In this document: positions 4,180-57,045 of the stretch, one piece after another
Position numbering within the stretch: position 1 is the stretch's first letter
How the letters are laid out: every line of letters begins with the position of its first letter
Assembly: GCA_046598345.1 (NCBI GenBank)
Contig: JBKJIT010000004.1
Span: 69,702-133,701 of the forward strand
Direction: 5' to 3'
DNA length: 64,000 bases
Source: Minisyncoccia bacterium
Lineage (GTDB): Bacteria; Patescibacteriota; Minisyncoccia; Phycocordibacterales; UBA918
The notes under the pieces: model-generated
What the model saw: only the letters and a program-made list of their open reading frames with translations
Told to the model about the DNA's origin: nothing
The model's database searches: none
Program-made: the position numbers and the translations under genes

Positions 4180-4617
4180 ATGAAATCAATTAATCCTTGG
4201 ATCAACTTCAATGGTAATGCAGAGGAAGCTTTTGTATTTTACAAGTCTATCTTTGGTGGTGAGTTTACAAAGAGTATACGTTTCAAAGATATTGTGACCG
4301 CAGAATTTCCTGTAGCAGAGAAAGAAGAGAATAAAATAATGTATATTGCGTTGCCAGTTGGTAACGGTAACGTATTAATTGGAAATGATGTCCCAGAGTT
4401 TATGGGAAAAGTTAATGAGGATGAAAACAGAAGCAAAATTTCAATACATACAGAAAGTAAAGAAGAGGCTGACAGAGTATTCAATGGACTTTCGGCTGGA
4501 GGGGCAGTTGAAGGACCAATGGGGGATAGCCCTTGGGGTACGTATTGTGGAATGTTCAGAGACAAATACGGTATTGAATGGATAGTGGAATTTGACTCGA
4601 ATATTAAAGCAAGCTGA
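4180..4617 (+). CDS. VOC/glyoxalase-superfamily protein (PhnB-like)
   Basis: 145 aa; 'EAFVFYKSIFGGEF...MYIALPVGNGNVLIGND...SPWGTYCGMFRDKYGIEW' typical PhnB/YjdN-like. Confidence 0.65.
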   Translation: MKSINPWINFNGNAEEAFVFYKSIFGGEFTKSIRFKDIVTAEFPVAEKEENKIMYIALPVGNGNVLIGNDVPEFMGKVNEDENRSKISIHTESKEEADRVFNGLSAGGAVEGPMGDSPWGTYCGMFRDKYGIEWIVEFDSNIKAS

Positions 4618-5005
4618 TTGTAATTCTGAGGCGGTTTCTTGTTTGTAATTCGTTGTTAGATGCAGGTGCAAACCTTTGTGCTGTTAGGTTACGGATGTGG
4701 TATGGGCACGTACTGCGGCAAAGATTTAGTTCTATAAAGCTTCAGCTCGGGTTCTCGGAATATCTTTTTTTCTCACTTTCGCATGCTTAGTCCGGTTATT
4801 CTTTCATATGAAAACGATTAAAATTTTGAGCTTTGTACTTTTACTAGCATTTGGAGTGTTTATGCTTGTGTTTGGTGGATATACGATAGTCCGGGAGCAC
4901 AGGGGCTGAGACTCTTTGCAGCTCTATTTGCTGTGTGGAAATTATTTAGACTCTTCAAAAAAAATTCGAAGCAAGACTAACGTGTCTGAAGTCAGAGGTA
5001 GTGTA

Positions 5006-5452
5006 TTAAGCATCAGGAATTTCTGGTTCAACTAATTTTGCAAGCTTTTCGAGTGATTCCTGCCAGCCGAGGTAACACATTTCAACTGGGATTTGTGGAG
5101 GAATACCTTCTTGCGTGATCTGGAGTTCAGTACCTCCAATAACTTTCTTAAACGTTACTGTCGTAGTCATCTCGCCGGGCAGATTTGGGTCATCAAACCG
5201 GTCAGAATATTTTACTAATTCATTTTGTTGCATTTCGAGGAAAGTTCCACCAAATGAGCTGCCTTTGCCGGTCGTGAAGTTTGTAAACGTCATTTTGTAG
5301 CTACCACCAACTGTAGCATCGTAACTTTGCACGGTACATATAAATCCATACGGAGGTATCCATGAGGCATGGGCATCGGCCTCTGTGAACGCGCGGTACA
5401 GCTTTTCAGGTATTGTTTTTATAACCCTGTGAAGTTTTATGGTATTTGACAT
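5006..5452 (-). CDS. SRPBCC/AHSA1-like domain protein
   Basis: 148 aa; pattern of Activator-of-Hsp90-ATPase-homolog-like SRPBCC proteins (KLHRVIKTIPEKLYRAFTEADA...WIPP). Confidence 0.6.
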   Translation of the reverse strand: MSNTIKLHRVIKTIPEKLYRAFTEADAHASWIPPYGFICTVQSYDATVGGSYKMTFTNFTTGKGSSFGGTFLEMQQNELVKYSDRFDDPNLPGEMTTTVTFKKVIGGTELQITQEGIPPQIPVEMCYLGWQESLEKLAKLVEPEIPDA

Positions 5453-5714
5453 AGGTATTAGTGTAGATCAATTCATGCAATTTTCAAATCCTGCGGCCAT
5501 ACAATGAGAGAGGTCTGATTGTGCGTGGTTTTTTGTATTCCTATAAATGAATAAAAGTCTGGGGTACTTGGAAAAGGAATTTGGGAATAATAATCTTCGA
5601 TTCAGAGAACATGCTTCAGATACTTACGAAAAAAATAGAAAATTCTCACATCTAGTTAGGGAATCCGTCAGAATAACTGTATTGTTAGAGAATCCCTATT
5701 AGCTAATTTAATAC

Positions 5715-5984
5715 ATGGAACAAAATACATATAAGTACGCTTCAATCGTGCTAGCACTCATCGCTCTTATATTTGCGTACCTCTACTTCTCCAAAGTAGA
5801 ACCAAACGCGGGTGATCTTTATCAAAGTGTTTCTGACAAAGTCGGGGAATGTAGCGAAGATATTACTGAGTGGAAGACTAAATATAGTGATATAGCTTCT
5901 TCAACCGAAAAACAAGCAGACCTTGATAAGATTCTTGAGAACTGTCAGGAAGTAATTACTGAAGGGCAGGCTCAACTTCAATAA
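5715..5984 (+). CDS. hypothetical membrane-anchored small protein
   Basis: 89 aa, single N-terminal TM helix, acidic tail. Confidence 0.3.
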   Translation: MEQNTYKYASIVLALIALIFAYLYFSKVEPNAGDLYQSVSDKVGECSEDITEWKTKYSDIASSTEKQADLDKILENCQEVITEGQAQLQ

Positions 5985-6079
5985 TCCAATTCGTACGTTG
6001 AAAAACCTCAATATTTTTGTATTGAGGTTTTTCATTTCATTTTCCTAGATGAGTGAGATAAGATAACCTTACAGTATAT

Positions 6080-6532
6080 ATGCAACTTTTAAATAATACC
6101 GAGACAACAGAAGTACGGAGCGAAGCTTCACAGTTTCTTATCGATCATAAGAAGATGATTCTTACCGTTTTGGATAAGGATGGGTACCCAAATTCCTCGT
6201 TGGTGCTCTATGTTGCTGATGACTTCACTATTTACTTTGGTACCCGCCGTGCGTTCGGAAAATATGCAGCGCTAACAACAAATCCACACGTTGCGATTGC
6301 CGTTGTACAAGAAAGCATCGATCCACTTCAGGTTCTCGACATACAGGGAATAGCAGAAGAAATACCGGAAGCCGAGACAAAGAAGACCGTGGAGTGGTTT
6401 ATGAGTAAGAATACGTCGAAGTTTTACATTAAAGGCGCCGAAGATCTCGTCATGTTTAAAATCAAACCACTGTGTATTCGATGGTTAAACGCCACTAGTG
6501 GCGATTTCCAAGTCTGCGACATTCAGGTGTAA
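6080..6532 (+). CDS. Pyridoxamine 5'-phosphate oxidase-like FMN-binding protein
   Basis: 150 aa split-barrel-like pattern; start after AT-rich leader. Confidence 0.5.
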   Translation: MQLLNNTETTEVRSEASQFLIDHKKMILTVLDKDGYPNSSLVLYVADDFTIYFGTRRAFGKYAALTTNPHVAIAVVQESIDPLQVLDIQGIAEEIPEAETKKTVEWFMSKNTSKFYIKGAEDLVMFKIKPLCIRWLNATSGDFQVCDIQV

Positions 6533-6536
6533 ATGC

Positions 6537-6563
6537 ATAAAAAAGCCCCCGAGTTAAGGGGGC
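6537..6563 (-). terminator. Rho-independent terminator for the HAD hydrolase gene
   Basis: gccccc-gagttaa-gggggc hairpin preceded by an A-run on + (T-run on - strand). Confidence 0.55.
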
Positions 6564-6593
6564 CAACGAATGGTTGTTTTGCTCCACTTGCTC

Positions 6594-7226
6594 TTATGGA
6601 GAGAGGAAGGCGGGGAGCTCTTCGAATGTGCTGATGTACCCGTCGAATCCTTCTGCTCTTACGATTGTTGGCCGAAGCGTCTGAATCGTACGCATGCCTA
6701 GTTCTTTTCCGGCTTTGAGTTCGGAAAGCGGATTGTCGCCCACGACTACCACTTCTTCTGGCTTCCATCCGTACCTTGTGCGGATGTCTTCGAAGATCTT
6801 CTTCTTGCCTTGTCTTGTCCCCAGATCATCAATCGTGTCGATCACGACCTCAGCAAACAAGTGCTTGATCTTGAGAAGTTGAATCTTCTTCGCTTGCAAC
6901 CGCTCGTACCCGGAGGTGACGAGAAAACGTGGCATTAAAATATCTGCGAGAAGGTTCTCGTCGCCGAAGGTTTCAATGTGATCGGGAACACTGAGCGTTG
7001 CGTGTGCGGCGCGCATTTCTCTTGCTACGCAGGGCGGCAGATAGAATATTTCGATCACGTCCTCGAGACTGGTCGTCCAGAGCACACGATTGATCTCTTT
7101 CTTTGTGGAGAGAGGCACGACGTGTGAAGCGTGAAGGACAGCAAATACGGGGTCAAGGAAGCCTTCACCCAATGTCCGTGTGTCGAACACGCACATGTCG
7201 AGATCCAAAATGATGCCTTTGTACAT
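6594..7226 (-). CDS. HAD-superfamily hydrolase
   Basis: Motif I 'ILDLDMCVFDT', motif IV 'VVVGDNPLSEL'. Confidence 0.65.
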   Translation of the reverse strand: MYKGIILDLDMCVFDTRTLGEGFLDPVFAVLHASHVVPLSTKKEINRVLWTTSLEDVIEIFYLPPCVAREMRAAHATLSVPDHIETFGDENLLADILMPRFLVTSGYERLQAKKIQLLKIKHLFAEVVIDTIDDLGTRQGKKKIFEDIRTRYGWKPEEVVVVGDNPLSELKAGKELGMRTIQTLRPTIVRAEGFDGYISTFEELPAFLSP

Positions 7227-7878: not shown

Positions 7879-8909
7879 ATACTTTTTTGTGGAGGATTCT
7901 TTCGTTCAGCTCTTCGCTTTTCTTCAACCTCCTTTAGATCTTTTTCTGAAAATGTATCGCGTCCCCCGTATTGATTGTACTCACGGTTCCATCCTGGAGT
8001 CACGAAATGCTTTCCATCTGGGGTGCGCTTCGGAGACGAGGCGTCTCTGCCCACAGTACCCGATTGTGCAAAGTCAGGGTCGCGTTCCGTTTTGTGTATC
8101 GTTGGAAGCCCTAATGCAGTCAGATTCGGGTCTCTCCACTCAAGGTAGGGACGAACAGCTCTTTCTTGTGTGTCGAGTTGAAAATTGCTCGTGTTAGTAT
8201 CTCGCTCCGTTTCGTTTTTAGTAGGGTGTCCGAGAACTTTCTTAGCGGGATCAATCCATTGTCCATTAGTTCTGTCTGCGCCACGGAGTTGATCGTACCA
8301 GCCTGATTCATTATTTTGAGTCTCTTGAGGCGCTTCTTTGATCTCAATGGTTTTCTCCGTGGGAATAGGTCGTTGGTACGAATGACCACCCATTTTTGCC
8401 GTGCCATCTGGATTTGCAGTGTTATATCCTTCTCCTGGTTTTGATGGAACAAAATCTGAAGGAAGTTTAATTGCTGGCGGACGAGTTGAAAGTACTTCTT
8501 GGCTAATATTGTCATTTTTCTCAGATCCGTGGGTTGCGTAACTCTGAATAACACTGAATGCACTTTCAAAGCATTTCTCATTAAAAGCAATATGCTCAGC
8601 GTTTTGAACAAGAATAAATTCAGCTTTAATTTTTTCCTTATTAACGATGCGGCGTGAAAGGAGGTACCTGATGATCTGAATCTTATAATAGAGATCCTGC
8701 ATGAACTCTGAGTGAGGAGCAATTGTAGGATCTTTTTCGGCTGCAGCTAAACGAGTCAGATACTCTGTGCGTTTTTGCAAAAGAAATTTTCCTGTCTCCG
8801 AGTCTGCGGGAAAGACAATTTCAGATGCGTTTAATGGCGTTCGGACATCGTGTGTCTCTCGAGCCTCCACCTTTCTTCCGCCGATAAATCCCTCTTGTTT
8901 CATGTGCAA
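7845..8909 (-). CDS. hypothetical protein, structured N-terminal domain with low-complexity tail
   Basis: 354-aa ORF, no recognisable motif; C-terminal half rich in T/N/P/R/D. Confidence 0.4.
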   Translation of the reverse strand: MHMKQEGFIGGRKVEARETHDVRTPLNASEIVFPADSETGKFLLQKRTEYLTRLAAAEKDPTIAPHSEFMQDLYYKIQIIRYLLSRRIVNKEKIKAEFILVQNAEHIAFNEKCFESAFSVIQSYATHGSEKNDNISQEVLSTRPPAIKLPSDFVPSKPGEGYNTANPDGTAKMGGHSYQRPIPTEKTIEIKEAPQETQNNESGWYDQLRGADRTNGQWIDPAKKVLGHPTKNETERDTNTSNFQLDTQERAVRPYLEWRDPNLTALGLPTIHKTERDPDFAQSGTVGRDASSPKRTPDGKHFVTPGWNREYNQYGGRDTFSEKDLKEVEEKRRAERKNPPQKSMWGRIKSFFGS

Positions 8910-12521: not shown

Positions 12522-14411
12522 CTAGATAATCCGGTCAGGATTGATAACAATCCGAATAGAAGGCGGCAACTCACGAAGCGTCGCAGCAAGTTGTTGGTCA
12601 GGCCACTTATTTGGCGGCAATCGAATGAGTCCAAACTGCATCACTGCACCTTTTGGTGGAAAGGAAGAATTATAAATTGAAATACCATACGGGGCGAGAA
12701 CGGTCTTGATTAGATTTTCCATTTTTTCTACAACATCTTTTTGTCCTTGCCAGGTAAGGTGAACGAAAGTTGCGAAAGGGGGGTACGAGAATGTCTTCCG
12801 AAGCTCGAGTTCTTCGTTATAAAATTGCTCAATCGAACCGCGCGCTGCGAGATCAATGAGTGAGCGTTCTTTTGTTCGCGCCTGCACGTACACCGTCTGC
12901 TTGGTAAGTTCTCGAAGCTTGAGGAGAAGGGCAAAATTCTCTTCTTGAAGTCGCCACGTTGGTGTCGCATTAAGAGAGTCCATATTGACGACGATCGATA
13001 CATCGATCGGCTCATGAATGTACGGCAGCGCCATCGTCGTTCCAATCATGATTGATCCCTTGGTGTTGTAAAACGTATGCGCAAGAAACATTGCTTTCTT
13101 GTGTGTGCTTGCAGTCGTGTGATCGAACAGCGTGATTGCAGTTTTGGGAAGCAGTTTTCCGAGTTCATCATGCACATACTGAATTCCTATGCCGCGTTCA
13201 CGTAGTCGCCACGACCCACACTCATCACAGGTATCCTGCGCCCGCTTCCTTTCGCCGGAGGAAGGGCAGACGAACCAGCGTTCCTCAACTCCATTTTTGT
13301 TTGTTCGTATGAGGGAATACGGCGCGCCACTCTCTTCAGACCTGAAGATATACCCACAGTCGAGACAGGCAACGACGGGCGAGAGACCGCGCCTCGCAGC
13401 AAACAAGAAGACGTGCCCCCTTTTCTTTAAGACTTCTTTAATAGCTTCGATAACCTTGGGAGAAAAGAGTTTAAACGGAGTCGTACCATCTAATTTTTCC
13501 TGCATCAGCACGAGTTCAAGTTTCGCTTTGGTCTCAATGCGTTTTGGATTTTCACCGTAGGTTTGGTACTCATCCGTGCGCCGCATGTATTCTTCTTCGC
13601 TTCGAGGTACGATGTCGGCCATAATGATTCTTCTTCCCGCGTGCTTTGCGTGTACACGATGGACTTCTCGATAATCAAGGTAGGGACGTACCAACTCTTT
13701 GTAATAGGGTGACCGAGCACACTCCATAATAACGAGTGTGATGTCATGGCGTTCGAGAAGGGAATGGGAAGGTGTAGCGATTATAAGTTTTGGTTTACTA
13801 AAGTCATCGAGCGCTTCGTATGCAGCGCGCATATGTGGTTTCCCCATTGTGCTCGTGAGGAGAATCGTGCGGTCGACAATACCCGGGGAAAGATATTTGA
13901 AGAGTTCGTTCGCTTCGCCCGAAGTTGGCACCACACAGACCACCGAACCGCTATGCGCAAATGTCTCGCGGACGAGAGAGCGGTAGGAAAGGTAGCGCTC
14001 TCTCGAATGTGCGGTGAGAACTTCAGGAGTGAATGTCTCAGTTGGTATGACGTGATGGGTATGAGGTAGGGGAATTTCTCCGTTTCGAATATCAGGCGGC
14101 AAAAGGTTATAGAGAATCGCTCCCACGCTCGACGCGTAATAGAGCGACAGTTCTTCAGCTGTTTGTATGTACGCAGGAGAAAGACTTTGCACATTTTCTT
14201 GCGGAGGTAGTTTCTTAAGAGAAAACGTGGCAGCGCGGAGTGCTGTTTTTGCACCGCTCACTTCCTCGGTTCGAGTTACCACCCCCAGAAAAGATTGATT
14301 TCGTACGGGAATCGTAAGAACCGTGCCACATTCATACTTCGTTGCGGAGTAGTAGGAAAGCGTATCAATCTGTACACCGCGTTTAAGTGGAATGACGTCG
14401 ATTACGAACAT
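12522..14411 (-). CDS. priA: Primosomal protein N' (PriA helicase)
   Basis: 629 aa; helicase motifs; Cys-rich zinc region (CLDCG...CPSSGE...CDECG); priA-def-fmt order is conserved in bacteria. Confidence 0.8.
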   Translation of the reverse strand: MFVIDVIPLKRGVQIDTLSYYSATKYECGTVLTIPVRNQSFLGVVTRTEEVSGAKTALRAATFSLKKLPPQENVQSLSPAYIQTAEELSLYYASSVGAILYNLLPPDIRNGEIPLPHTHHVIPTETFTPEVLTAHSRERYLSYRSLVRETFAHSGSVVCVVPTSGEANELFKYLSPGIVDRTILLTSTMGKPHMRAAYEALDDFSKPKLIIATPSHSLLERHDITLVIMECARSPYYKELVRPYLDYREVHRVHAKHAGRRIIMADIVPRSEEEYMRRTDEYQTYGENPKRIETKAKLELVLMQEKLDGTTPFKLFSPKVIEAIKEVLKKRGHVFLFAARRGLSPVVACLDCGYIFRSEESGAPYSLIRTNKNGVEERWFVCPSSGERKRAQDTCDECGSWRLRERGIGIQYVHDELGKLLPKTAITLFDHTTASTHKKAMFLAHTFYNTKGSIMIGTTMALPYIHEPIDVSIVVNMDSLNATPTWRLQEENFALLLKLRELTKQTVYVQARTKERSLIDLAARGSIEQFYNEELELRKTFSYPPFATFVHLTWQGQKDVVEKMENLIKTVLAPYGISIYNSSFPPKGAVMQFGLIRLPPNKWPDQQLAATLRELPPSIRIVINPDRII

Positions 14412-47508: not shown

Positions 47509-47952
47509 CTACCGGATTCTGCTTTTGAATTGAGGATCGTTTCGCAAATCTGAAGATACTAAGGTGATTAAAATTGGAGCGCGCGTTACTACCACAGAAG
47601 CTATTTCTCTATCACCTCGAAGCTCTGTAGATGCCCAATTAAAGGCGTAGGGCGCCTGTTTTACCGCTTCAAGCACAACCTCACGATCGTTTTGAAGATT
47701 TTCAGAGGCATACTGAAGTAAAGCGCCGTCTATTTTTACTCTTTCTAATACAAATTTTTTATCATCAGCATACTTTTCCCAGTCCCGAGCTTCATTTTCT
47801 GAAAGTGCTTCGGTCTGAGCATCTGCATATTTTTCTGCATTTTCAAATGCCTCTTTAGCAGCATCAAATTCATCACTTGTAACTTGGCGAATCTGTTCAG
47901 GTTTTTCTGGTGTCATATATTCTATTGAATCATACAACTTCAAAATGTACAC
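47509..47952 (-). CDS. DUF4116-repeat protein
   Basis: 'LQNDREVVLEAVKQAPYAFNWASTELRGDREIASVVV...LRNDPQF' repeats. Confidence 0.45.
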   Translation of the reverse strand: MYILKLYDSIEYMTPEKPEQIRQVTSDEFDAAKEAFENAEKYADAQTEALSENEARDWEKYADDKKFVLERVKIDGALLQYASENLQNDREVVLEAVKQAPYAFNWASTELRGDREIASVVVTRAPILITLVSSDLRNDPQFKSRIR

Positions 47953-48062
47953 CTCAGTGAGTGGAGTAGAATCGAAGCTTACAGCTTCAGTACCCGTTAC
48001 GGCTACTTTTCTTCACTGCGCTCTAAAAGATAGCTTGCAACGGCTTCGATTCCCTGGACTAT

Positions 48063-48089
48063 GCTCCATTGGTCAGCCCTATGACAACA
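48063..48089 (+). repeat. 27-bp motif GCTCCATTGGTCAGCCCTATGACAACA (copy 1), left boundary of the KaiC cassette
   Basis: 26/27 identical to copies at 55979, 56034 and 56531; contains the stop codon of the GAF kinase. Confidence 0.6.
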
Positions 48090-49323
48090 TCTCAACCCTC
48101 GCAGCCTCTCTATGGTCATTCTTTTGAAGTGGAAGTGAAAATGAAAATATCGAACCTACCCCTAGCTCACTCTGGACATCCAGTGTTCCATTATGAGCCT
48201 TAATGATATCGCTACAAATATAAAGGCCGAGACCTAGGCCAATCGTTTTCGTGTCAGTTCGTACTCGGTAGAATCGATCAAATATTTTAGTACAATCTGC
48301 TTTAGCGATACCGTGACCAAAATCCTTTACACTTACTATAGCTTCAGAACTTGTCTGATTAACAGTAATTTCGATTCTTTCTGATTGTGGAGCATATTTA
48401 ATTGCATTGCCTAGCAAGTTAGTTAACACTTGGGTTATTTTATCTTTGTCTGCGTGAACAATAAGGTTTGTATGCGAATACATGAGTACAAATTTTTGCG
48501 ATGAGTGATTTTGAAAATAGTTAACTGCATCGTTAACAAGCTGATTTAGATCGAAGTTTTCTTTTTGCAGATGTACTTCTCCATTTTTGAGGGCACGTAT
48601 ATCAAAAAGACGAGTCACAAGCGAGTCGAGATGATCTATTTGGGTATCAATGTTCCCAACATCCATATCTAAATCCTCGGAATTGTTTGTGGAAAGTTTG
48701 TGTTGCAACAATTGTGTATATGCTTTCAAACTTGTAAGAGGTGTTCTAATTTCATGAGCAGCTATTAAGACAAACTCGTCCAATGCGGATGCTGCTTGAC
48801 GTAATTCAATTTCAGTCAGCACGGATTTCGACAGTTCGACTAAGATTTCTAATTCATCTTCAGTCCAGATTCTTTTCTTATAATCAACTACACAGCACGT
48901 ACCAAGAATAAGCCCTTGTTTTGTGATAAGCGGAATGCCTGCGTACGCAACTACACCTAGGTAATGCACCGAGGGGAAGTGACGAAAAATTTCTGATTCG
49001 CGTGCGTCCTCCAAGACAAGTGGTTCACCACTGTCGACAATATGCTGGCAAAATGATGGGTGGGCAGTAATTTCTCTACTTTCCGCAAGTGGAGCAGGGA
49101 GCCCGAAATGACTCTTTAAAAAATCACGATCCTTTTCAAGTATTGTCACAAACGAAATGGGGGTTTTAAGGAGTTTCGATGCTAATCGTGTAAGCCGGTC
49201 AAACGCCTCTTCTTCGCCAGTATCAATTAAATTTATTTTCTTTACAGCATTTAATCGACGCGCATTATTGACCGTATCACGAATTTTTTTGATGTGACCA
49301 TCTATGGGAGAATCATTCGACAT
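48079..49323 (-). CDS. GAF-domain sensor histidine kinase
   Basis: GAF region; HisKA 'IAAHEIRTPLTSLKAYTQLL'; HATPase_c 'LLGNAIKYAP...VKDFGHGI...GLGLGLYICSDIIKAHNG'. Confidence 0.8.
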   Translation of the reverse strand: MSNDSPIDGHIKKIRDTVNNARRLNAVKKINLIDTGEEEAFDRLTRLASKLLKTPISFVTILEKDRDFLKSHFGLPAPLAESREITAHPSFCQHIVDSGEPLVLEDARESEIFRHFPSVHYLGVVAYAGIPLITKQGLILGTCCVVDYKKRIWTEDELEILVELSKSVLTEIELRQAASALDEFVLIAAHEIRTPLTSLKAYTQLLQHKLSTNNSEDLDMDVGNIDTQIDHLDSLVTRLFDIRALKNGEVHLQKENFDLNQLVNDAVNYFQNHSSQKFVLMYSHTNLIVHADKDKITQVLTNLLGNAIKYAPQSERIEITVNQTSSEAIVSVKDFGHGIAKADCTKIFDRFYRVRTDTKTIGLGLGLYICSDIIKAHNGTLDVQSELGVGSIFSFSLPLQKNDHREAARVEMLS

Positions 49324-49398
49324 AAAGCAATTATATATTAAAACGAGTATTTGAGGTAAAAATGAAAATTTTCATCTCGTATTCATTTTTCCCTATAG

Positions 49399-49426
49399 GT
49401 GACCCACATTAGTGCGAATTGGAACC
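49399..49426 (-). promoter_or_regulatory. Conserved 28-nt upstream motif (copy 2) GTGACCCACATTAGTGCGAATTGGAACC
   Basis: See copy 1; 76 nt upstream of the GAF-kinase start, in the divergent region shared with kaiC. Confidence 0.35.
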
Positions 49427-49614
49427 AACTATTCAAAAACATGTTGATATTTGATTAATCGAGAACAGACGATTCATGATTATTTCATCGGAGTCGAGTA
49501 AACTACTTTAGTGTGATCGCACTGTCGAAAGAAGAATGGCGTACCTTCTCGTGAAACAAGCATTAATCGGAACATTATCAGAGCACAACGATTCCCTAAG
49601 ATTATGATTATTGT

Positions 49615-51123
49615 ATGCCTAAAACTCCTAAGAAAAAACTTGCCTCTAACCAGAAGCACTTAGACAAATGCCCCACTGGCATCAAAGGCTTAGACGAGGT
49701 TACCGAAGGCGGGTTTCCGAAAAATAGAACCACATTAATTTCCGGAGGTGCCGGCTCTGGAAAAACCCTTTTGGGGATTGATTTTCTTATCAAAGGTGCA
49801 AGCGATTTTAACGAGCCAGGCGTCTTCATGTCCTTTGAGGAGACACAAGATGACCTGTATAAAGATGTGGCTTCTCTAAGCCTTGATTTACCAGGACTTG
49901 TTTCACGAAAAAAGATTCTGATTGAGCATGTGATTCTCGATCGCAAAGATATTCGAGAGGGCGACTTCAATCTTGAGGGGATACTCGTTCGTCTGGAACA
50001 TGCCATTGATTCGATTGGAGCAAAACGCATTGTTTTAGATTCTATCGAATCTCCCTTTGCAAGCATCGCCGATGCCGGCATTCTTCGAATAGAGATCAAA
50101 AGACTTTTTAAGTGGCTTAAAGACAAACACGTTACAGCAATCGTTACTGGCGAGCCAGGACGAGGTGCGTATACTCGTCATGGCCTCGAGGAGTTCGTCT
50201 CCGACTGCATTATTCTGCTCGATAATAGAGTTAAAGAACAAATTGCTATCCGTAGACTTCGTATCGTCAAATATCGGGGTTCAAACCATGGAACAAACGA
50301 ATATCCATTCGTCATTGATCAATCGGGGCTTTCTGTAATTCCGATCACCTCAGCAGGACTTAATCAGCCGGGCATTGCCAAAAAAGTCTCAACAGGAATT
50401 CCATCGTTGGACAAAATGTTTAAGGGAAAACCCGGATATACCAAAGGCAGCACGATACTGGTTTCGGGCACTGCAGGCACAGGCAAAACAAGCCTGGCTG
50501 CTGCATTCGCACTAGCGAGCTGTAAACGGGGAGAGCGGTGTCTATTCTTGTCGTATGAAGAATCTTCCGGGCAACTCATACAAAACATGAGTTCTATAGG
50601 TATTCATTTTGAGCCCTGGGTAAAAAAAGGACTCTTAAAGATTGTCTCGGTGAGGCCTTCTTTTTTTGGCCTAGAGATGCACTTGCTTGATTTATACAAG
50701 CTTGTTGACAGTTTTAAACCAAAATCTGTCGTCATAGATCCTCTGACGAGTCTCATTGGAGAGGGGGACGAGCGTGAAATCAGATCTATGATCACTCGCA
50801 TGATTGACCTCTTAAAGTCGAAAGCCATCACTACGTTTTTCACATCTCTTGTTTCTGCATCACAGTATAATGACACGAGCGGTGAGATCGGCGTTTCTTC
50901 CCTAATAGACACGTGGATCGTAGTGAGAGAATTAGAAGAAGAAGTAGGAAAAAAACGTATTCGTGGAATCTTCATTGTGAAGTCTCGTGGCACTGGGCAT
51001 GAGAGTGACGTCCATAAGTTGATTTTGAGTGATGATGGAATTAGCATAATACCCATGGATCTTGCGAGCGCCAATGCGAAAAACAAGAATGACAAGAAGT
51101 TTACCCCTACCCCCCCCTCATGA
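49615..51123 (+). CDS. kaiC: KaiC-like double-RecA-domain ATPase
   Basis: Two Walker A motifs (ISGGAGSGKTLLG; VSGTAGTGKTSLA); catalytic-Glu-like 'SFEETQDD' and 'SYEESSGQ'; C-terminal 'GVSSLIDTWIVVRELEE' aligns with the KaiC phosphosite loop. Confidence 0.8.
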   Translation: MPKTPKKKLASNQKHLDKCPTGIKGLDEVTEGGFPKNRTTLISGGAGSGKTLLGIDFLIKGASDFNEPGVFMSFEETQDDLYKDVASLSLDLPGLVSRKKILIEHVILDRKDIREGDFNLEGILVRLEHAIDSIGAKRIVLDSIESPFASIADAGILRIEIKRLFKWLKDKHVTAIVTGEPGRGAYTRHGLEEFVSDCIILLDNRVKEQIAIRRLRIVKYRGSNHGTNEYPFVIDQSGLSVIPITSAGLNQPGIAKKVSTGIPSLDKMFKGKPGYTKGSTILVSGTAGTGKTSLAAAFALASCKRGERCLFLSYEESSGQLIQNMSSIGIHFEPWVKKGLLKIVSVRPSFFGLEMHLLDLYKLVDSFKPKSVVIDPLTSLIGEGDEREIRSMITRMIDLLKSKAITTFFTSLVSASQYNDTSGEIGVSSLIDTWIVVRELEEEVGKKRIRGIFIVKSRGTGHESDVHKLILSDDGISIIPMDLASANAKNKNDKKFTPTPPS

Positions 51124-51145
51124 GCAAGGAGTAATGTCGTAACAC

Positions 51146-51733
51146 ATGAAAACACTACGACCCAACTTCATTGTCGGTATTGGGGGCTCGGCCGGAGCTC
51201 TTAACGCATATAAGGCGCTCTTGGATGCCACGCCGCCCAAAACAGGGATGGCCTTAGTCATTATTTCTCATATGAATCCCGCCGCCAGCAGTGAGTTAGC
51301 GCACATTCTGTCGCGTCACACGAAAATGCCGGTCATGGTTGCTACCCAAGCGATGCCAGTCCGAAAGAATCACATCTACGTTATCGCCCCGAACTCGGAT
51401 ATTTACATTGAAAAATATACTTTCAAAGTCGTCTCCCCGCGCACAGAGAGGAATAAGCAAATAGATCTGTTTTTGACTTCGTTAGCAGAGGCTATGGGGG
51501 CACATGCTATCGGCGTTATCCTTTCGGGATTTGGTGGTGACGGTACGGAAGGATGCAAAAACATCAAAGCAAACAGGGGAACAACCTTTGCTCAGGACAA
51601 CTCGGCCGAAGTAGACGACATGCCGCTCAGTGCCCAGGCTTCAGGCTGTATTGATTTCGTTCTGCCACCTGACAAAATTTCAGTTGAACTACAAAAAATA
51701 GTAGGGACACACCTACGCGCCAACCGGGTTTAG
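51146..51733 (+). CDS. Stand-alone CheB-type protein-glutamate methylesterase (catalytic domain only)
   Basis: 'IVGIGGSAGA' Ser, 'ISHMNP' His, 'GFGGDGTEG' Asp; no receiver domain. Confidence 0.7.
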   Translation: MKTLRPNFIVGIGGSAGALNAYKALLDATPPKTGMALVIISHMNPAASSELAHILSRHTKMPVMVATQAMPVRKNHIYVIAPNSDIYIEKYTFKVVSPRTERNKQIDLFLTSLAEAMGAHAIGVILSGFGGDGTEGCKNIKANRGTTFAQDNSAEVDDMPLSAQASGCIDFVLPPDKISVELQKIVGTHLRANRV

Positions 51734-52105
51734 CGTGCCCGTACCCAAATGCTTTCCGACTGTAGTTAGCATATCCTGCATGGTATACGGCTTTTCCATA
51801 AAACCGTTTGCACCCGCTTCAAGTGCTGAGGCAGATGCATCAGGGTATGCCGAAATCATGATGATGGGAATATGTTTTGTGACTTGACGTGTTTTCAAAT
51901 GCCTGCAAACGTCAAGTCCGTTTACTCCTGCCATCCAGATGTCGAGGAGAATGAGATCGGGAAACGGGGCGTTTATTTTTTTGACCTCTTCTCCATTCAT
52001 GATCGAAGTTACTTCATACCCGCCATATTGAAGGACCATGGTAAGAGAAGCGACAATACCGTCATTGTCATCTGCCACTAAAACTTTTTTCTTTTGTTTA
52101 GCCAT
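51713..52105 (-). CDS. Single-domain response regulator (CheY-like receiver)
   Basis: 'KKVLVADDN', phospho-acceptor in 'LILLDIWMAG', 'IIMISAY', 'GFMEKPY'; 21-nt convergent overlap with the CheB gene. Confidence 0.85.
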   Translation of the reverse strand: MAKQKKKVLVADDNDGIVASLTMVLQYGGYEVTSIMNGEEVKKINAPFPDLILLDIWMAGVNGLDVCRHLKTRQVTKHIPIIMISAYPDASASALEAGANGFMEKPYTMQDMLTTVGKHLGTGTLNPVGA

Positions 52106-52147
52106 ATTGACCTTTTCATCTATTCAACAGAGGTGTTCATGTAGATG

Positions 52148-55100
52148 TCATGAATTTGCAGTGGCCTTACGTTTTGTTAGCTGTGGGAGGGGAAGTGTAA
52201 AGGTGAATGTAGAACCTTTACCTAAGATACTTTCGACCAGTATCTTGCCCTCGTGTTTCTCGATGATCTGGGCCGCAATAAATAATCCGAGCCCGAATCC
52301 TTCTGCTTTTTCACTCTTTGCAAAGCCGTTCTTTTCTTTTCCTCGGTAAAAGCGCTCAAAGATCGTTTTATGATCTGCCTTTTCAATCCCCAAGCCGAAG
52401 TCCTGAATGCTTACCACTGCATCTCCCGCATGTTCGCCCACGTGTACAATTACTTTTTTTCCGACAGGCGAATATTTGATTGCATTCGTGAGTAAGTTTA
52501 TCACCACCTGCTCAATGCGACTTGCATCAGCTACGACATGTCGTTTTACTCTGCCTTCTAGCGTAATCGTATGGTGCAGCGTGGTTTCCTTGATCGCACT
52601 TACAGTGCGTTCCATGAGTTTGTTGAGATCAAACTCTTCTTTATTAATTAAAAATTTTCCTGCTTGCATTTGGCTGAAACTCAGTAGATCACCGACCAAG
52701 TTCGTAAGCCTATCGCTCTGAGTGATGATGTGCTCAAGAATGACTGCGCTCTCTTTCTTTACGCTGCCTGAGAGCTTTTTTTGCAAAAGCTCGGTAAATG
52801 TCTTGATAGTTGTGACGGGCGTCTTTATTTCATGCGAGGCAATACCGATAAACTCCTCTTTCTGTTGCTCAAGTTCTTTGCGTCCGGTGATGTCGACAAA
52901 ACAATTAATCGCTCCGGTTATTTCTTCTTTTTCATTTTTAATTGGACGAATATTGATGATGACAGTGACCCGCGAACCATCGGGGCGCGCAATCTGAACT
53001 TCCAGATCACGTGCCTCGGGAATCTTGCCAGATAACACCTCGGCCATCGGAGTTACCTCGTGGGGCATGAACGTGCCGTCGGAGCGGTACAATTTGAACG
53101 AACCCCAGAAGCGCTCGTCGGTATCGCCACGCTGCGGGCTGCGGCCCCACAATTCCGTAGCATTGTGGTTGAAATCCCGAATCACGCCGTTTGCATCGCA
53201 GGAATAGAGCGCGATGGGGCCTAAGTCGAATAAAATGCGGTAGCGCTCTTCATTCTCTATAATTTTTTGATGAGCGAGAGCTTGTTCGGTTATATCCTCA
53301 ATGGCAAGTAGAATAAGCCCCGTTTTCCCTGCATCTTGAATCAGTTTGCGAGCATTCAAAAGGAGTACCTTGTGACCAATTGAGGGAAAGGTGTGCTCAA
53401 TCTCAAAGTTTTCCAATTTCGTATTTTTGGGTAGGATCTCCGTCAAAAGTGTGCGTAATTTTGGAATGTCCCACTGCCCATTGCCCAATTCGTAGAGGAA
53501 ATTTCCTTCCGTTTGCTCCTTTGATACCTGGAATGTCCGAAAAAAAGATTCATTCGCGCTTCTCACTCGCAAGTCGCTGTTGATGACGATTAACGACCCT
53601 CGCACCGTTTCAATAATCGCCTCAGTATATGCGCGGGACTCGTTCAGTTGCTCATTGCGTGTTTGCAGCTCTTGATTAATCGTGTTGAGCTCTTCGTTGG
53701 TTGACTCAAGTTCTTCACCGGACGTTTCCAATTCCTCATTGATACTCTGCAGCTCTTCGTTGCTTGAAAGGATTTCCTCGTTTGCAGATTGCAGCTCCTC
53801 AACTGCAGCTTCCTGTTCTTCCGCGAGGGATCGCTCGTTGTCACGTACCTGAGCAAGTTCTTTCTCGAGCACAGCGCTCCTACGGCTCTCCGTCTTCGAC
53901 CTACGAACGTTAGAGGCAGTCTGGCGGAGTGGAGAGTCCGCGGTATCGACTCTCTCTGGAGCCGTATGAAATATAACTAGGAAATGACGCTCTGCAGAAG
54001 TTTTATTTAAAGGAATCACTTCAATCGAGATGGCGTGTGCATGTGTTTCTGTCAGCAGCGTAACTTCTCTTTTAATAGAAAGACTGGTCCTTTTTGCTTT
54101 TAGAATTGCGCCGCGAAGCTCGGATATCAACCCTGCTCGCGCTACTTTTAAAAGATTGAATGTCGCTTTTCCCGTTGGAAATTGGAGATATTCCCCCGTG
54201 TCGCCTCGGAACTGCAGGATCTCATACTCGGCGTTAACCAGAACGCTCGCCGGCGCAAAGCGCCCGACCAGAATGGCATCAGCCTCATCTTGAATTCCAA
54301 TCGTCCGTGCAAGGGGAGTAGTCTCTCGGCTTGAGGGAGTGCGCTGTCGGCCCATCGCGCGCTCCTCGCGCGGAATAACGTCGGGTAATACTTTTCTCGT
54401 CCCAGTTTTTTTTGTGAAGACTTTACTTTTTTTCACAACCGGAATGAAGAGCTTTGGCGTCACCCCCACTGATTCTGATTTTCCTAGGATCAATACTCCC
54501 TCGCTCACAAGTGCATAATGAAGAGCCGACAAAATCCTATACTGCAAGCTCGTGTCCATATAGATAAGAACATTGCAGCAACTAACGATATCAATCCGCG
54601 AAAACGGCGGATCTTTCAGCAGATTGTGCAATGAAAAAACGCACATATCCCGTACATCCCTTCGTATTTGATATGCGCCATTTGTTTCGACGAAGTACCG
54701 CTCGAGACGTTGCGGTGACACGCCAATCACATCGCTTTTCGTGTATGTTCCGTGACGAGCCTTCGCAATTGCGACTTGGGCCAAATCAGTGCCAAATATT
54801 TGTAGAGGGATAGAGAGCGATTTGCTACTCATGAAGTCCAAAACAGTGATAGCAAGTGAATAGACCTCTTCTCCAGTTGCGCATCCCGCCACCCAGATGC
54901 GCAGAGGTTCTTTAGCGGTCTTGGCTTTAATCAGCTTCGGGAGAAGCTTTTGAGTTAAGGTGTTCAATGCAACTGGGTCTCGGAAGAAATCAGTAACATG
55001 TATGAGAATATCATTAAAGAGCGCGTCAGCTTCGGTGCCATTTCCCCGCAGAAAATTGAGGTAGTCTGCTGCAGTTTCCATCTTATTGATGATCATCCTG

Positions 55101-55900
55101 CGAGTGATACGTCGCGTCAGAGTTGTCTCTTTATAGTGGCTGAAGTCCACGCCGGTAGCCCGCAGAAGCTCCGCGATAATCCGCCGGTAATCGTCGAGTT
55201 TATGCAACTCTGTTTTAGAAAGTTCCGAATCACCCATCGTTACAAGCGGATGCTCGCTGAGGAGAGCGAGCTCTTCCGCTATTCTTTGCGGGGACAGCAC
55301 ATAATCAACGACGCTCGCTGAAATGGCAGATTGCGGCATGCTCTGATATTTTGCCGTAGTATCTTGCGCGAACGTGAGTCCGCCAGCCTCTTTTATCGCT
55401 CGCAGTCCTACCGTGCCATCGCTCGCAGTCCCCGAGAGCACAACTCCGATAGCTTTCTCCTGCCTTTCACTGACGAGCGAGATAAAAAAGTCATCGATGG
55501 GCATATTGAGCAATCCTTTTTCTTTCGGACGTGACAAGAGCATAAGCCTTTCTCCCTTGAGGGTCATGCACTTACCCGGCGGAATAACATAAATATGATC
55601 CGATGTAACGAGCGTTCCATTTTTCACTTCTGTGACAGGAATCTGAGTAAATCGTGCGAGTAACTCCACAAGCATACTTTTGTGGAGTGGGTCCAAATGT
55701 TGTATGAGGACATACGCCATGCCGGTTTTGAGCGGCAGAGATTCAATAAGGTTGCCAAATGCCTCGAGCCCACCCGCCGAAGCTCCTATACCAACAATGG
55801 GAACCGGTTGTAGGGTTTGTGTTTTCCTGCTACGCCGTACAAGAGCAGGTCTTTTTTTGCTTTTCTTGTCTAGCATACTCCTCGGTTTCATACCACCCAT
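52148..55900 (-). CDS. Multidomain CheB methylesterase / CheR methyltransferase / PAS / coiled-coil / histidine kinase fusion
   Basis: CheB 'IVGIGASAGGLEAF...IQHLDP...SGTASDGTVG'; CheR 'LRIWVAGCATGEEVYSLAI'; 'EELQSANEEILSSNEELQSINEELETSGEELESTNEEL' heptad repeat; HisKA 'IASHEIKTPVTTI'; HATPase_c 'LLTNAIKYSP...IQDFGLGI...GFGLGLFIAAQ'. Confidence 0.8.
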   Translation of the reverse strand: MGGMKPRSMLDKKSKKRPALVRRSRKTQTLQPVPIVGIGASAGGLEAFGNLIESLPLKTGMAYVLIQHLDPLHKSMLVELLARFTQIPVTEVKNGTLVTSDHIYVIPPGKCMTLKGERLMLLSRPKEKGLLNMPIDDFFISLVSERQEKAIGVVLSGTASDGTVGLRAIKEAGGLTFAQDTTAKYQSMPQSAISASVVDYVLSPQRIAEELALLSEHPLVTMGDSELSKTELHKLDDYRRIIAELLRATGVDFSHYKETTLTRRITRRMIINKMETAADYLNFLRGNGTEADALFNDILIHVTDFFRDPVALNTLTQKLLPKLIKAKTAKEPLRIWVAGCATGEEVYSLAITVLDFMSSKSLSIPLQIFGTDLAQVAIAKARHGTYTKSDVIGVSPQRLERYFVETNGAYQIRRDVRDMCVFSLHNLLKDPPFSRIDIVSCCNVLIYMDTSLQYRILSALHYALVSEGVLILGKSESVGVTPKLFIPVVKKSKVFTKKTGTRKVLPDVIPREERAMGRQRTPSSRETTPLARTIGIQDEADAILVGRFAPASVLVNAEYEILQFRGDTGEYLQFPTGKATFNLLKVARAGLISELRGAILKAKRTSLSIKREVTLLTETHAHAISIEVIPLNKTSAERHFLVIFHTAPERVDTADSPLRQTASNVRRSKTESRRSAVLEKELAQVRDNERSLAEEQEAAVEELQSANEEILSSNEELQSINEELETSGEELESTNEELNTINQELQTRNEQLNESRAYTEAIIETVRGSLIVINSDLRVRSANESFFRTFQVSKEQTEGNFLYELGNGQWDIPKLRTLLTEILPKNTKLENFEIEHTFPSIGHKVLLLNARKLIQDAGKTGLILLAIEDITEQALAHQKIIENEERYRILFDLGPIALYSCDANGVIRDFNHNATELWGRSPQRGDTDERFWGSFKLYRSDGTFMPHEVTPMAEVLSGKIPEARDLEVQIARPDGSRVTVIINIRPIKNEKEEITGAINCFVDITGRKELEQQKEEFIGIASHEIKTPVTTIKTFTELLQKKLSGSVKKESAVILEHIITQSDRLTNLVGDLLSFSQMQAGKFLINKEEFDLNKLMERTVSAIKETTLHHTITLEGRVKRHVVADASRIEQVVINLLTNAIKYSPVGKKVIVHVGEHAGDAVVSIQDFGLGIEKADHKTIFERFYRGKEKNGFAKSEKAEGFGLGLFIAAQIIEKHEGKILVESILGKGSTFTFTLPLPQLTKRKATANS

Positions 55901-55976: not shown

Positions 55977-56090
55977 TAGCTCCATAGGTCAGCCCTATGA
56001 CAACAGAAAAAATTAATACGTCAAGATTTGTTAGCTCCATAGGTCAGCCCTATGACAACAGAAAAAATTAATACGTCAAGATTTGTGACC
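55977..56090 (+). repeat. Two tandem 57-bp units, each beginning with the 27-bp GCTCCATAGGTCAGCCCTATGACAACA motif
   Basis: 55977-56033 and 56034-56090 near-identical; third copy at 56530-56586. Confidence 0.7.
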
Positions 56091-56246
56091 TCCCGGAAAA
56101 TCGGGGTCAAGTTCCTAAGCTCGTTGCGACTCGCTAAGAACTTTCTCCCCGGTCTCCCTCGAGTAGGCTCTCAGTCCGACTTTCGATTCTCCTGGACTAA
56201 AATAGTAAAACCCCGCACAAGGCGAGGCTTTACTATTTCAGTGACC
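56085..56246 (+). repeat. Distal copy of ~160-bp unit: degenerate tRNA-Glu 3'-end copy (gtgacctcccggaaaatcg) + terminator-containing segment
   Basis: Near-identical to 56582-56737; ends with a partial 'gtgacc'. Confidence 0.6.
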
Positions 56247-56339
56247 CAATAGCGTGGCTTTCAGAACTTTATAAGGACCAACAATATATCAAATCGAGTA
56301 TTCAGTTATTAAGCGATTTTGTATCTTAATGATGTGTGA

Positions 56340-56537
56340 CTATAGAGAGTTATATGCCTCAACTTGATTATCATATTCAAACTTCACCATCTGAAAGTTC
56401 ATACCCCACTTATTTTTTGCTTTTACCATAATGTTTGGGTGCGCTGTTTGAGCCATTACCCAATCATATGCCTCAACTTGATTATCATATTCAAACTTCA
56501 CCATCTGGTAGTTGTCACCCCATTTTTGTAGCTCCAT
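56340..56537 (-). CDS. doubtful small ORF with internal repeat (YQMVKFEYDNQVEAY x2)
   Basis: 41-bp DNA direct repeat at 56353 and 56468; start codon lies inside the 27-bp motif; may be non-coding. Confidence 0.15.
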   Translation of the reverse strand: MELQKWGDNYQMVKFEYDNQVEAYDWVMAQTAHPNIMVKAKNKWGMNFQMVKFEYDNQVEAYNSL

Positions 56538-56581
56538 AGGTCAGCCCTATGACAACAGATAAATTTAATACGTCAAGTTTT

Positions 56582-56737
56582 GTGACCTCACGGAGAATCG
56601 GGGTCAAGTTCCTAAGCTCGTTGCGACTAGCTAAGAACTTTCTCCCCGGTCTCCCTCGAGAAGGCTCTCAGTCCGACTTTCGATTCTCCTAGACTAAAAT
56701 AGTAAAACCCCGCACAAGGCGAGGCTTTACTATTTCA
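56582..56737 (+). repeat. Proximal copy of ~160-bp unit beginning with an exact 19-nt copy of the tRNA-Glu 3' end
   Basis: gtgacctcacggagaatcg at 56582-56600 equals 56738-56756; remainder equals 56104-56246. Confidence 0.6.
56703..56724 (-). terminator. Rho-independent terminator just 3' of tRNA-Glu
   Basis: On - strand: CCTCGC-CTTGT-GCGGGG + TTTT; duplicated at 56204-56225. Confidence 0.55.
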
Positions 56738-56738
56738 G

Positions 56739-56810
56739 TGACCTCACGGAGAATCGAACTCCGATTTGCTGGATGAGAACCAGCTGTCCTAACCGTTAGA
56801 CGATGAGGCC
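56739..56810 (-). tRNA. tRNA-Glu (anticodon CUC)
   Basis: Manual fold: acceptor GGCCTCA/TGAGGTC, D-arm TCGTCTAACGGTTAGGACA, anticodon stem-loop GCTGG-TTCTCAT-CCAGC, T-arm CGGAG-TTCGATT-CTCCG, discriminator A; no encoded CCA. Confidence 0.8.
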
Positions 56811-57045
56811 GTATATTTGATTTTCACTAAACCGCAAGTTTATAAGAATGAGTGAGAAGTGATTTTATATCACTTCGCAAGACTTTGACAGATATTTTGT
56901 TAAAAATATCTGTCAAAGTGGACAGTCGCTGTAAGCGATCGTAAAAGAGTATCCCACACTCTTTTACTCCCATCCGTTGACGATCATGCCGACTTGATTT
57001 GAACGGCATAGTTATACCAGATTTACTCTCTTTATTAAAGAGAGG

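Follow-up and report, generated by a model that had tools for sequence, protein, structure and literature searches.

Small structured units with copied tRNA ends beside the tRNA-Glu gene of a Minisyncoccia bacterium

The stretch of DNA analysed here, referred to as the window, comprises 64,000 nucleotides (nt) of contig JBKJIT010000004.1 from a Minisyncoccia bacterium and holds a gene for transfer RNA (tRNA)-Glu, the last 19 nt of which recur on its 3' side. An earlier note on this DNA took the recurring tails for the likely scar of repeated integration and excision at the tRNA. The tails lie at the ends of compact units that combine an inverted with a direct copy of the tRNA end, and the outermost of these units, together with an element on the 5' side of the tRNA, belongs to a structured family whose copies match the ends of many different tRNAs. 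We tentatively favour, while stopping short of calling it probable, the reading in which non-autonomous insertion modules that carry attachment (att) sites accrete at the tRNA end and trap cargo genes, with a recombinase acting in trans.

Results

Anatomy of the tRNA-Glu locus

tRNA-Glu is the sole tRNA called within the window, with ARAGORN and Rfam in agreement (Table 1). The 19-mer GTGACCTCACGGAGAATCG (+ strand) is the reverse complement of its 3' end, from the interior of the T-loop to the discriminator base. Outside the gene (56738-56756) it occurs exactly at 56582-56600 and with two mismatches at 56085-56103; matches appear in 0 of 100 shuffles of the window, and both recurrences described in the earlier note therefore hold. 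A degenerate direct copy of the tRNA end is also found near 47945-47976, in unit U3. As at an island in a tRNA gene, direct repeats of the 3' segment are present at both ends and the tRNA itself is intact. A 220-nt repeat (56027-56246 versus 56524-56743; 95.5% identity) contains both 19-mer copies, and its 10 differences speak against a duplicate made by the assembler. Repeat expansion or a chimeric join at the repeat is barely credible to us: the source is a metagenome assembly and the contigs of relatives often break at tRNA-Glu, but besides these differences similar tandem layouts are seen in the independent assemblies L006, L014, L171, L188 and L276 (L numbers denote loci fetched for comparison).

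Read on the tRNA strand, the order is tRNA, a 42-nt terminator, unit U1, a 55-nt unit, an open reading frame (ORF) of 65 codons, GGTCAC followed by an identical terminator, unit U2, two 55-nt units, the KaiC/Che genes, a degenerate 27-bp motif, unit U3 and a DUF4116 gene. The repeated "~140-bp segment" of the earlier note resolves into the 42-nt terminator hairpin and a 114-nt unit that includes the 19-mer; its three "57-bp units" are real, with a period of 55 nt, not 57. The inverted T-loop/T-stem piece GGAGAATCGAA, which opens both U1 (56689-56679) and U2 (56192-56182), had been missed. In U1, AGTCTAGGAGAATCGAA is a partial inverted copy of the tRNA T-loop/T-stem, and the T-loop/3' end of the tRNA pairs with 56679-56689 around the terminator T1, yielding one long hairpin (fold of 56578-56762, z -6.4).

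The unit termini read AGTCYAGGAGAATCG ... CGATTCTCCGTGAGGTCAC. Relative to U1, a change in the inverted copy of U2 (56194, C) and one in its direct copy (56093, G) together replace a T.T mismatch by a C-G pair, and a further change at 56098 (T) yields a G.U pair. A second tRNA-like fold in the repeats, which the earlier note had entertained, is not detected: neither ARAGORN nor the Rfam tRNA model finds a tRNA gene or pseudogene cloverleaf inside the units, which hold the last 19 nt and the inverted 11-mer. Unit U3 contains the inverted copy AGTCCAGGGAATCGAA and the conserved core, and its direct copy is degenerate and carries an insertion, TTCGATTCT...TGAGGTGTAC; this unit is probably an older one and a clear family member on the far side of the KaiC/Che cassette.

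A structured family

A profile built from the tRNA-Glu units of relatives matched U3 as well as copies in L065, L005 and L031. The L065 copy follows rpsI and is flanked by 27 nt duplicated from the 3' end of that gene, and the L005 copy lies inside a disrupted second copy of tRNA-Glu. By a scan for the core pattern, the conserved core is present in at least 120 metagenome contigs, and it occupies nine sites in the genomes of relatives; 124 copies from metagenome and genome loci were analysed. The shared design runs from an inverted tRNA end, often interrupted by a hairpin, through GAA-R-R-CCUU, helices P2 and P3, AAGG-UGUACUG and helix P4 with its loop UGUAA, to a direct tRNA end; in subtype B, GGUGAG and a hairpin take the place of the tRNA-derived ends. 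The core with P2, P3 and P4, described by the covariance model R1, is present in U3 and in the copy at 56869-56947.

The fold was assessed by placing a hand-written structure on an alignment of 94 sequences. Pairing is found in 78% of the cells, against 60% in shuffles, and the covariation score of 0.372 (versus 0.120) is reached by 0 of 500 shuffles; when the partner columns are slid by 1-3, pairing falls to 31-47%. Three pairs of P4 show 49, 54 and 29 double changes with 0-3 breaks, and RNAalifold independently recovers P4 along with the U-A pair that closes the pentaloop. This T-loop-like UGUAA pentaloop with its closing U-A pair is present in 92 of the 94 sequences. In P2-P4, G.U outnumbers A.C by 60 to 27, which marks the fold as strand-specific, on the sense strand of the linked tRNA. 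Helix P1, in which the inverted copy pairs with the direct copy, holds in ~57% of the cells, essentially those of the tRNA-linked subtype.

U1 and U2 are not matched by R1 at expectation values (E) up to 10. What they have in common with the R1 family is limited to the way they start (AGTCYAGGAGAATCGAA), the repeat at their end, where they lie and the general grammar, and their homologues are four, at tRNA-Glu in the relatives L001 and L006 and in metagenome contig L188. Judged from these features, they may be regarded as a divergent subtype (C) of the family design.

No Rfam 15 family matches the units, at E up to 10 in the window and L013 and up to 0.05 in 18 further loci; the matches returned there are only tRNAs, one rRNA and one unrelated group I intron. 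No description of the motif or the family was found in the searched literature. Hammerhead, twister and other ribozymes do not fit by inspection of junction order and sequences, and no model of them matches; size and the absence of model matches speak against a group I or group II intron. In viral contigs the core pattern gave 80 matches, all of them chance matches upon re-scoring with the profile.

Association with cognate tRNA ends

Copies lie at most 200 nt downstream of a co-oriented tRNA in 49 of the 124 cases and just upstream of one in 11 cases, at spacings of ~40-100 nt and 30-50 nt, respectively, and 26 isoacceptors are represented. The inverted copy is exactly complementary to the end of its own tRNA over a median of 12 nt, compared with 5 nt for non-cognate tRNAs, and over at least 8 nt in 44 of 49 copies. 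The direct copy matches its own tRNA exactly over a median of 9 nt (versus 5 nt), reaching at least 10 nt in 22 of 49, and is often split by an insertion. Twenty-six different target sequences are not what one protein-recognised site would give, and can be explained by a site that is copied or base-paired. Displaced fragments flank the elements with other crossover points as well, namely in the anticodon loop (L005 and L188), in the variable region (L163) and in the 27-nt rpsI end (L065), and the duplicated target segments measure 9-27 nt.

The same features may be read at the level of RNA. A structured non-coding or cis-acting RNA, co-transcribed with tRNAs as a 3' trailer or 5' leader, is the main rival explanation, possible though somewhat unlikely. 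Its inverted/direct stem would mimic an acceptor/T-arm minihelix, and RNase P and RNase Z could excise the unit and define downstream transcript ends; alternatively, the inverted copy would switch between the tRNA end and the decoy copy. Arrays would then arise by local duplication and unequal crossing-over instead of insertion. The strong covariation, the G.U pairs, which are specific to the sense strand of the tRNA, the pentaloop with its resemblance to a T-loop, and the spacing from co-oriented tRNAs all accord with such an RNA, as do the divergence of copies within a genome, the long hairpin of tRNA end, terminator and inverted copy, and the correlated changes that keep the inverted and direct copies of U2 paired; a protein partner was not found among the neighbouring ORFs. 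However, a T-run terminator separates tRNA and unit and leaves scant room for a promoter of its own, and exact identity to the adjacent tRNA end, for 26 isoacceptors, needs copying at the DNA level anyway. Elements are found, too, next to tRNA fragments that have been displaced, within a disrupted copy of a tRNA, in the inverse orientation, and behind a protein gene whose end is duplicated over 27 nt. At the same tRNA, subtypes and copy numbers differ among related species, some of which have none; the neighbouring genes show no orientation bias; and nothing in Rfam 15 matches.

Turnover at the tRNA-Glu site

The Pif1-type helicase next to the tRNA assigns the window to Patescibacteria: its best matches are in Paceibacterota/Kaiserbacteria-type metagenome-assembled genomes, at no more than 76% amino acid identity, and the right flank (Pif1, YgjP-like, TruB, YqeY and RmuC) is syntenic in relatives. 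Exact look-ups of the Pif1 and KaiC proteins retrieved no contig for comparison as an independent assembly. On the 3' side of tRNA-Glu no gene is shared with the relatives, and the conserved left neighbour, where the dcw cluster ends, lies 18.1 kb from the tRNA in the window but 1.2-7.9 kb from it in relatives. Units stand behind the respective tRNA-Glu in L001, L006 (two), L013, L014 (two), L015 and L009, and their copies match each species' own tRNA. Occupancy of the site varies among relatives: at the tRNA-Glu beside Pif1, subtype C is found in the window, L001 and L006 and subtype A in L013, L015 and L009, and no unit is found in L011, which has a serine recombinase instead, nor on the 3' side in L005. 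Subtype C is proximal and subtype A distal to the tRNA in the window and in L006 alike, the order expected if modules enter at the tRNA. We note that in L009 a run of N (2751-~2848) directly follows tRNA-Glu, where the terminator and inverted copy are expected; the rest of the unit comes after it, without a direct repeat.

The arrangement recurs in L188, where tRNA-Glu is followed by PPase-like and ASCH genes, the remnant GGGGTCAC, a terminator and a subtype-C unit that ends in tRNA 3' sequence; beyond these come further units, the 3' half of a tRNA-Glu, a subtype-A unit and another copy of the terminator, with the core genes for SMC and RNase III after them. By its layout, L188 appears to be an independent replicate of the grammar of the window, [cargo][partial tRNA end][terminator][inverted copy-core][direct copy], and it is in the window and in L188 that cargo lies between units.

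These layouts bear on whether local events alone, slippage or unequal crossing-over of one tRNA-terminator-unit, might account for the array, the outer copies being decayed duplicates with neither mobility nor function. The near-identity of the 220-nt copies, with their identical terminators, and tandem identical arrays elsewhere (for example, L276) are what it would produce. It does not account for the foreign gene fragment of 277 nt that separates the copies, for the cassette of 8 kb that parts U2 from U3, for the different subtype of U3, for the element on the 5' side or for the parallel layout of L188, and we consider it very improbable.

A conventional integrative element does use the site. 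In L011, a gene for a large serine recombinase of 528 amino acids (5046-6632, + strand; Resolvase, Recombinase and Zn ribbon) runs into the 3' end of tRNA-Glu (6571-6643, - strand), and L014 has an AIPR defence gene at its tRNA-Glu. The contigs of four relatives end in or beside tRNA-Glu, one of them inside the direct repeat. The scar proposed in the earlier note draws support from these breaks, from the serine recombinase at the same tRNA end and the hypervariable 3' flank, and from the direct duplication itself, which, spanning T-loop to 3' end, is the junction type of site-specific integration into a tRNA gene. Its specific form, in which the repeats are attL/attR-type footprints of tRNA-Glu islands that encoded an integrase and later lost it with most of their content by deletion or excision, would also agree with the AIPR gene and with the horizontal spread of the KaiC module described below.

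As decaying scars, however, the repeats do not fit. What lies between them is no set of random remnants; it is a conserved module with covarying helices, which recurs without genes of its own at least 120 times, beside housekeeping genes and at no fewer than 26 kinds of tRNA, and which carries both the inverted and the direct end of its own tRNA. An inverted tRNA end would not be expected from exchange between attP and attB; an excision that is precise leaves no trace, and hence no scar; and 55.9-56.8 kb contains no integrase pseudogene, its sole ORF being a fragment of an unrelated protein. We therefore judge the footprint explanation improbable.

Search for a recombinase

The statement of the earlier note that no integrase is present agrees with our scans: among the matches listed for the scanned ORFs of the window, none is an integrase or recombinase domain. 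No recurrent recombinase or transposase family was found among the 148 ORFs nearest to family copies (Pfam) or the 757 ORFs within 2.5 kb (all-versus-all clustering), and no recurrent recombinase in a scan of 44 ORFs downstream of tRNA-Glu in relatives. The neighbours of family copies are housekeeping genes. With linked integrases absent across the family, their absence here is the rule and not a sign of loss. A parent integrative and conjugative or integrative and mobilizable element (ICE or IME) was not found in the fetched loci, and a scan of viral contigs gave chance matches only. The only mildly recurrent neighbours are small nuclease-type genes, YraN/UPF0102 in 5-6 loci and GIY-YIG in three (for example, L166 4571-4966 and L192 2331-2582), a recurrence that may stem from the usual synteny with tRNA genes and not from any link in function.

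The KaiC/Che cassette and the 27-bp motif

The KaiC/Che cassette is bracketed by a unit and a repeat on either side. Homologues of its KaiC protein, 82-92% identical, occur in records whose names point to several other phyla (Fibrobacterota, Oligoflexia, Gammaproteobacteria and Bacteroidota), and the KaiC-CheB core (49615-51733) is 85% identical at the nucleotide level to an unrelated JGI contig, L282 (1449-3542). The comparison suggests that the KaiC-CheB module moves between phyla. The idea in the earlier note that the repeats mark the arrival of the cassette is thus supported in part, by the bracketing and by this horizontal spread. Directly downstream of KaiC-CheB, L282 has an IS200-type Y1 transposase gene (3656-4279).

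The 27-bp motif has three exact copies (55977-56003, 56032-56058 and 56529-56555) and a copy with three mismatches (48061-48087), and none in shuffles. It holds a hairpin of 6 bp with a 5-nt loop, CATAGG-TCAGC-CCTATG, and its copies flank the 7.9-kb KaiC/Che cassette as direct repeats. The 55-nt units with this motif look promoter-like and supply a start codon, the ATG of ORF65 coming from the motif of the unit 57c. The motif may be a second recombination site or a portable promoter/ribosome-binding-site piece; it was found in none of the fetched loci, and viral contigs gave 0 matches.

ORF65 encodes 65 amino acids, has an internal 60-nt repeat and lies within a unique stretch of ~277 nt, much as the earlier note had described (~280 bp). 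The doubt cast there on the ORF is not upheld: it has one homologue, and only one, P0001 on contig L281 (77% identity, E 1.5e-25), which measures 98 amino acids with an N-terminal extension. ORF65 is a real coding fragment, equivalent to the C-terminal domain of that longer protein.

The 5' side of the tRNA and further features

The subtype-B element on the 5' side of tRNA-Glu (56850-56947) is laid out as GAGTGAG, a hairpin, CGCAAGAC and the core. The evidence for the displaced copy of the tRNA 5' end next to it is modest, an equal score being reached in 6 of 300 shuffles. The same layout, with a tRNA 5' fragment, an element and an intact tRNA, is present in L005, L163 and L270. In L163, an array at 12631-12968 (- strand) stands upstream of the intact tRNA-Ala: the first ~46 nt of tRNA-Ala(CGC) occur twice in tandem, each time with a subtype-B element after them. 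It is a mirror image, on the 5' side, of the array in the window.

At ~1690-1757 (+ strand) of the window, between a HupE/UreJ gene and a dCache-HAMP gene, lies what may be the 5' half of a truncated family member, AGTCTAGGAGA...GGATTCGAAGACCTTGC...TTTTGAGCGC (nhmmer E 0.02; not reported by the covariance model). A short motif, TTAGTAACTCGTGAC, with the variants TAGTGACC and TTAGTAACTGCGGG, recurs within and between subtype-C and some other units (L006 ~8490-8520; L180; L244; L188 ~1170-1180 and ~1330-1345). In the 4.9-kb contig L269, near-identical elements with identical flanks stand inverted at 280-353 (- strand) and 4855-4928 (+ strand) and enclose six ORFs, an arrangement that might represent a composite mobile unit or have been produced by inverted repeats during assembly. 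A group I intron is found in L226 (1571-1809, + strand; 56.2 bits, above the gathering score), a contig that also has two tRNAs and an element, to which the intron is not adjacent.

Table 1. Features of the tRNA-Glu locus, with positions in the window
Feature	Position	Strand	Basis or remarks
Unit U3, subtype A	47945-48060	-	nhmmer E 6.8e-29; R1 55 bits, E 5e-13 at 47966-48056
Degenerate 27-bp motif	48061-48087	-	overlaps the stop codon of the GAF histidine kinase gene; abuts U3
Cargo: GAF histidine kinase, KaiC, CheB, response regulator, CheB-CheR-PAS-histidine kinase hybrid	48079-55900		Pfam
Tandem 55-nt units 57b (56032-56084) and 57a (55977-56031)	55977-56084	-	upstream of the CheB-CheR-PAS-histidine kinase gene
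Unit U2, subtype C, copy of U1	56085-56198	-	ends in the 2-mismatch 19-mer 56085-56103
tRNA-end remnant GGTCAC (6 nt, 56241-56246) and terminator T2	56199-56246	-	T2 identical to T1
ORF65, gene fragment	56340-56537	-	two copies of the motif KWGxNYQMVKFEYDNQVEAY
55-nt unit 57c	56529-56581	-	-35-like TTGACG; ends in the 27-bp hairpin motif
Unit U1, subtype C	56582-56695	-	starts AGTCTAGGAGAATCGAA; interior hairpins; ends in the exact 19-mer 56582-56600
Terminator hairpin T1	56696-56737	-	inverted repeat directly 3' of the tRNA
tRNA-Glu(CUC), anticodon ctc	56738-56810	-	ARAGORN; Rfam tRNA 59.2 bits; CCA not encoded
Subtype-B family member, 5' side of the tRNA	56850-56947	+	R1 38.9 bits, E 1.5e-8 at 56869-56947; inverted repeat
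Probable displaced copy of tRNA-Glu positions 1-24	56968-56990	-	local alignment, 19/24 identical, one gap

Discussion

A model of accretion at the tRNA end

In the reading that we favour, the nested tail copies would be the end repeats of small, gene-less, structured modules, stacked 3' of tRNA-Glu with one on its 5' side. Each module would consist of an inverted copy of the tRNA segment from T-loop to 3' end, a structured interior (the conserved three-helix core in subtypes A and B, other hairpins in subtype C) and a direct copy of the same end. In single-stranded form, the inverted copy could reach over the terminator and pair with the end of the tRNA, or else pair with the direct copy inside its own module, and either pairing would re-create a duplex that resembles the end of the tRNA gene and may act as the attachment site. 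The module, as a circle or a single strand and either alone or together with cargo, would be joined to the tRNA end by an enzyme supplied in trans, through a recombination that would restore the tRNA and push the older copy outward. Repeated events of this kind would produce the observed succession of tRNA, terminator-U1, 55-nt unit with ORF65 fragment and terminator-U2, and 55-nt units with KaiC/Che and U3, the newest modules being nearest to the tRNA. What is observed is the anatomy, the family with its covariation, the agreement with cognate tRNAs, the absence of linked recombinases and the return of this grammar at other loci; mobility, the single-stranded intermediate and the enzyme in trans are what we infer. 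Likeness to the attC sites of integrons and to folded attP sites of the CTX type makes the single-stranded intermediate plausible.

Several observations weigh against insertion by such modules. The neighbour scans identified no candidate recombinase, and mobility is deduced from assemblies, in which neither a circular junction nor a pair of occupied and empty alleles from one population was seen. The units flagged in the earlier note, U1 and U2, escape the family model and have their support in four homologues only. U3 does not have the prefix of partial tRNA end and terminator, which makes the cassette grammar non-uniform, and the composition of the KaiC cassette, considered as a mark of foreign origin, is host-like and not anomalous. 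No tRNA lies within 200 nt of 61 of the 124 copies, some of which are cut by contig ends, and subtype B is devoid of tRNA-derived ends. The alignment was gathered with a fixed sequence pattern, and those core positions that the pattern used are invariant by construction. The loop motifs, that is, the T-loop-like UGUAA and the small conserved P3 loops, resemble RNA tertiary motifs. Finally, copies within one contig have diverged, save for tandem copies such as those in L276, a divergence that suits old, possibly functional elements as well as active ones.

Comparison with known systems

Integration sites in tRNA genes are reportedly sorted into sublocation classes (by Williams, in 2002). Tandem islands at tRNA and tmRNA genes, as at ssrA of Dehalococcoides (PMC3146451), likewise have direct repeats of the 3' end of the RNA gene, restore the gene, pile up and leave a variable flank; they measure kilobases and encode their own integrase, whereas the family here is ~110-190 nt long and gene-less, with a covarying fold and an additional inverted copy of the target. 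Cis-mobilizable elements (CIMEs) and the accretion of ICEs and IMEs (PMC5704250) resemble the arrays here in being att-bounded, without recombination genes of their own, served by an enzyme in trans (which we presume for the present family) and accreted; CIMEs are deletion derivatives that share their ends with a specific ICE, whereas the present module is conserved across many tRNA targets.

The attC sites of integrons (PMC3053210) and clusters of attC sites lacking an integrase, CALINs (PMC7923331), offer a structural parallel. Their cassettes end in an imperfect palindrome that folds when single-stranded and is better conserved in structure than in sequence, and the pairing, covarying inverted and direct copies of the present units may be its counterpart. 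Extra-helical insertions on one arm, integrase-free arrays and small cargo genes are common to both, and a newest cassette next to a fixed site would be as well. In the present family, by contrast, a tRNA gene serves as the anchor, the arms that pair are copies of the tRNA end, and the stem is capped by a conserved three-helix core. An attC/integron array itself was rejected: scans of the window gave no intI/attI, and the unit ends have no RYYYAAC/GTTRRRY (R''/R') cores.

Integrative mobile elements exploiting Xer (IMEX) of the CTX-phi type carry two inverted copies of their target ~90 nt apart, which fold to mimic the duplex, use host recombinases in trans and form tandem arrays. Those elements target dif and are gene-bearing phages; by contrast, the units here have no recognisable Xer-type site.

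Miniature inverted-repeat transposable elements (MITEs) and REPINs (PMC3184786) are likewise small, non-coding and intergenic, often next to terminators, with hairpin-forming inverted termini, and are mobilised in trans, but their termini are fixed, the duplications of their targets are short, and they occur at unrelated sites in many near-identical copies. In the present family the termini vary from one target tRNA to the next, and the copies, which are site-specific, have diverged. A classical MITE or REPIN was set aside on these grounds, namely termini that follow the cognate tRNA, divergence of copies in the same contig and target duplications as long as those described above. In tRNA-like modules of the mascRNA type, a helix resembling the acceptor and T arms, placed downstream of a transcript, could attract RNase P and RNase Z. 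In contrast to these, the units have no cloverleaf, and processing of this sort needs no identity to the neighbouring tRNA.

Implications

Patescibacteria have tiny genomes with few recognisable mobile elements, and gene flow among them is poorly understood. A bolder proposition, which we rate as unlikely, is that these bacteria possess a tRNA-anchored gene capture that dispenses with a resident integrase, in which the folded stem of the module re-creates the end of the target tRNA, and the att site, dictated by nucleic acid that is copied or base-paired instead of by a fixed sequence that a protein recognises, has been redirected to 26 or more tRNA species. Such a capture system would, by analogy, be a functional counterpart of integron attC/attI or of the folded attP of a phage, with a new core and an enzyme in trans. 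If the units are insertion modules, they would provide a concrete route of gene gain in the Patescibacteria radiation and would explain the frequent assembly breaks at tRNA genes. If they are instead RNAs co-transcribed with tRNAs, they would constitute a large class of structured RNA tied to tRNA maturation, not found in Rfam 15 or in the searched literature. With a consensus, a covariance model, a structure backed by covariation and more than 120 loci, the family is now testable.

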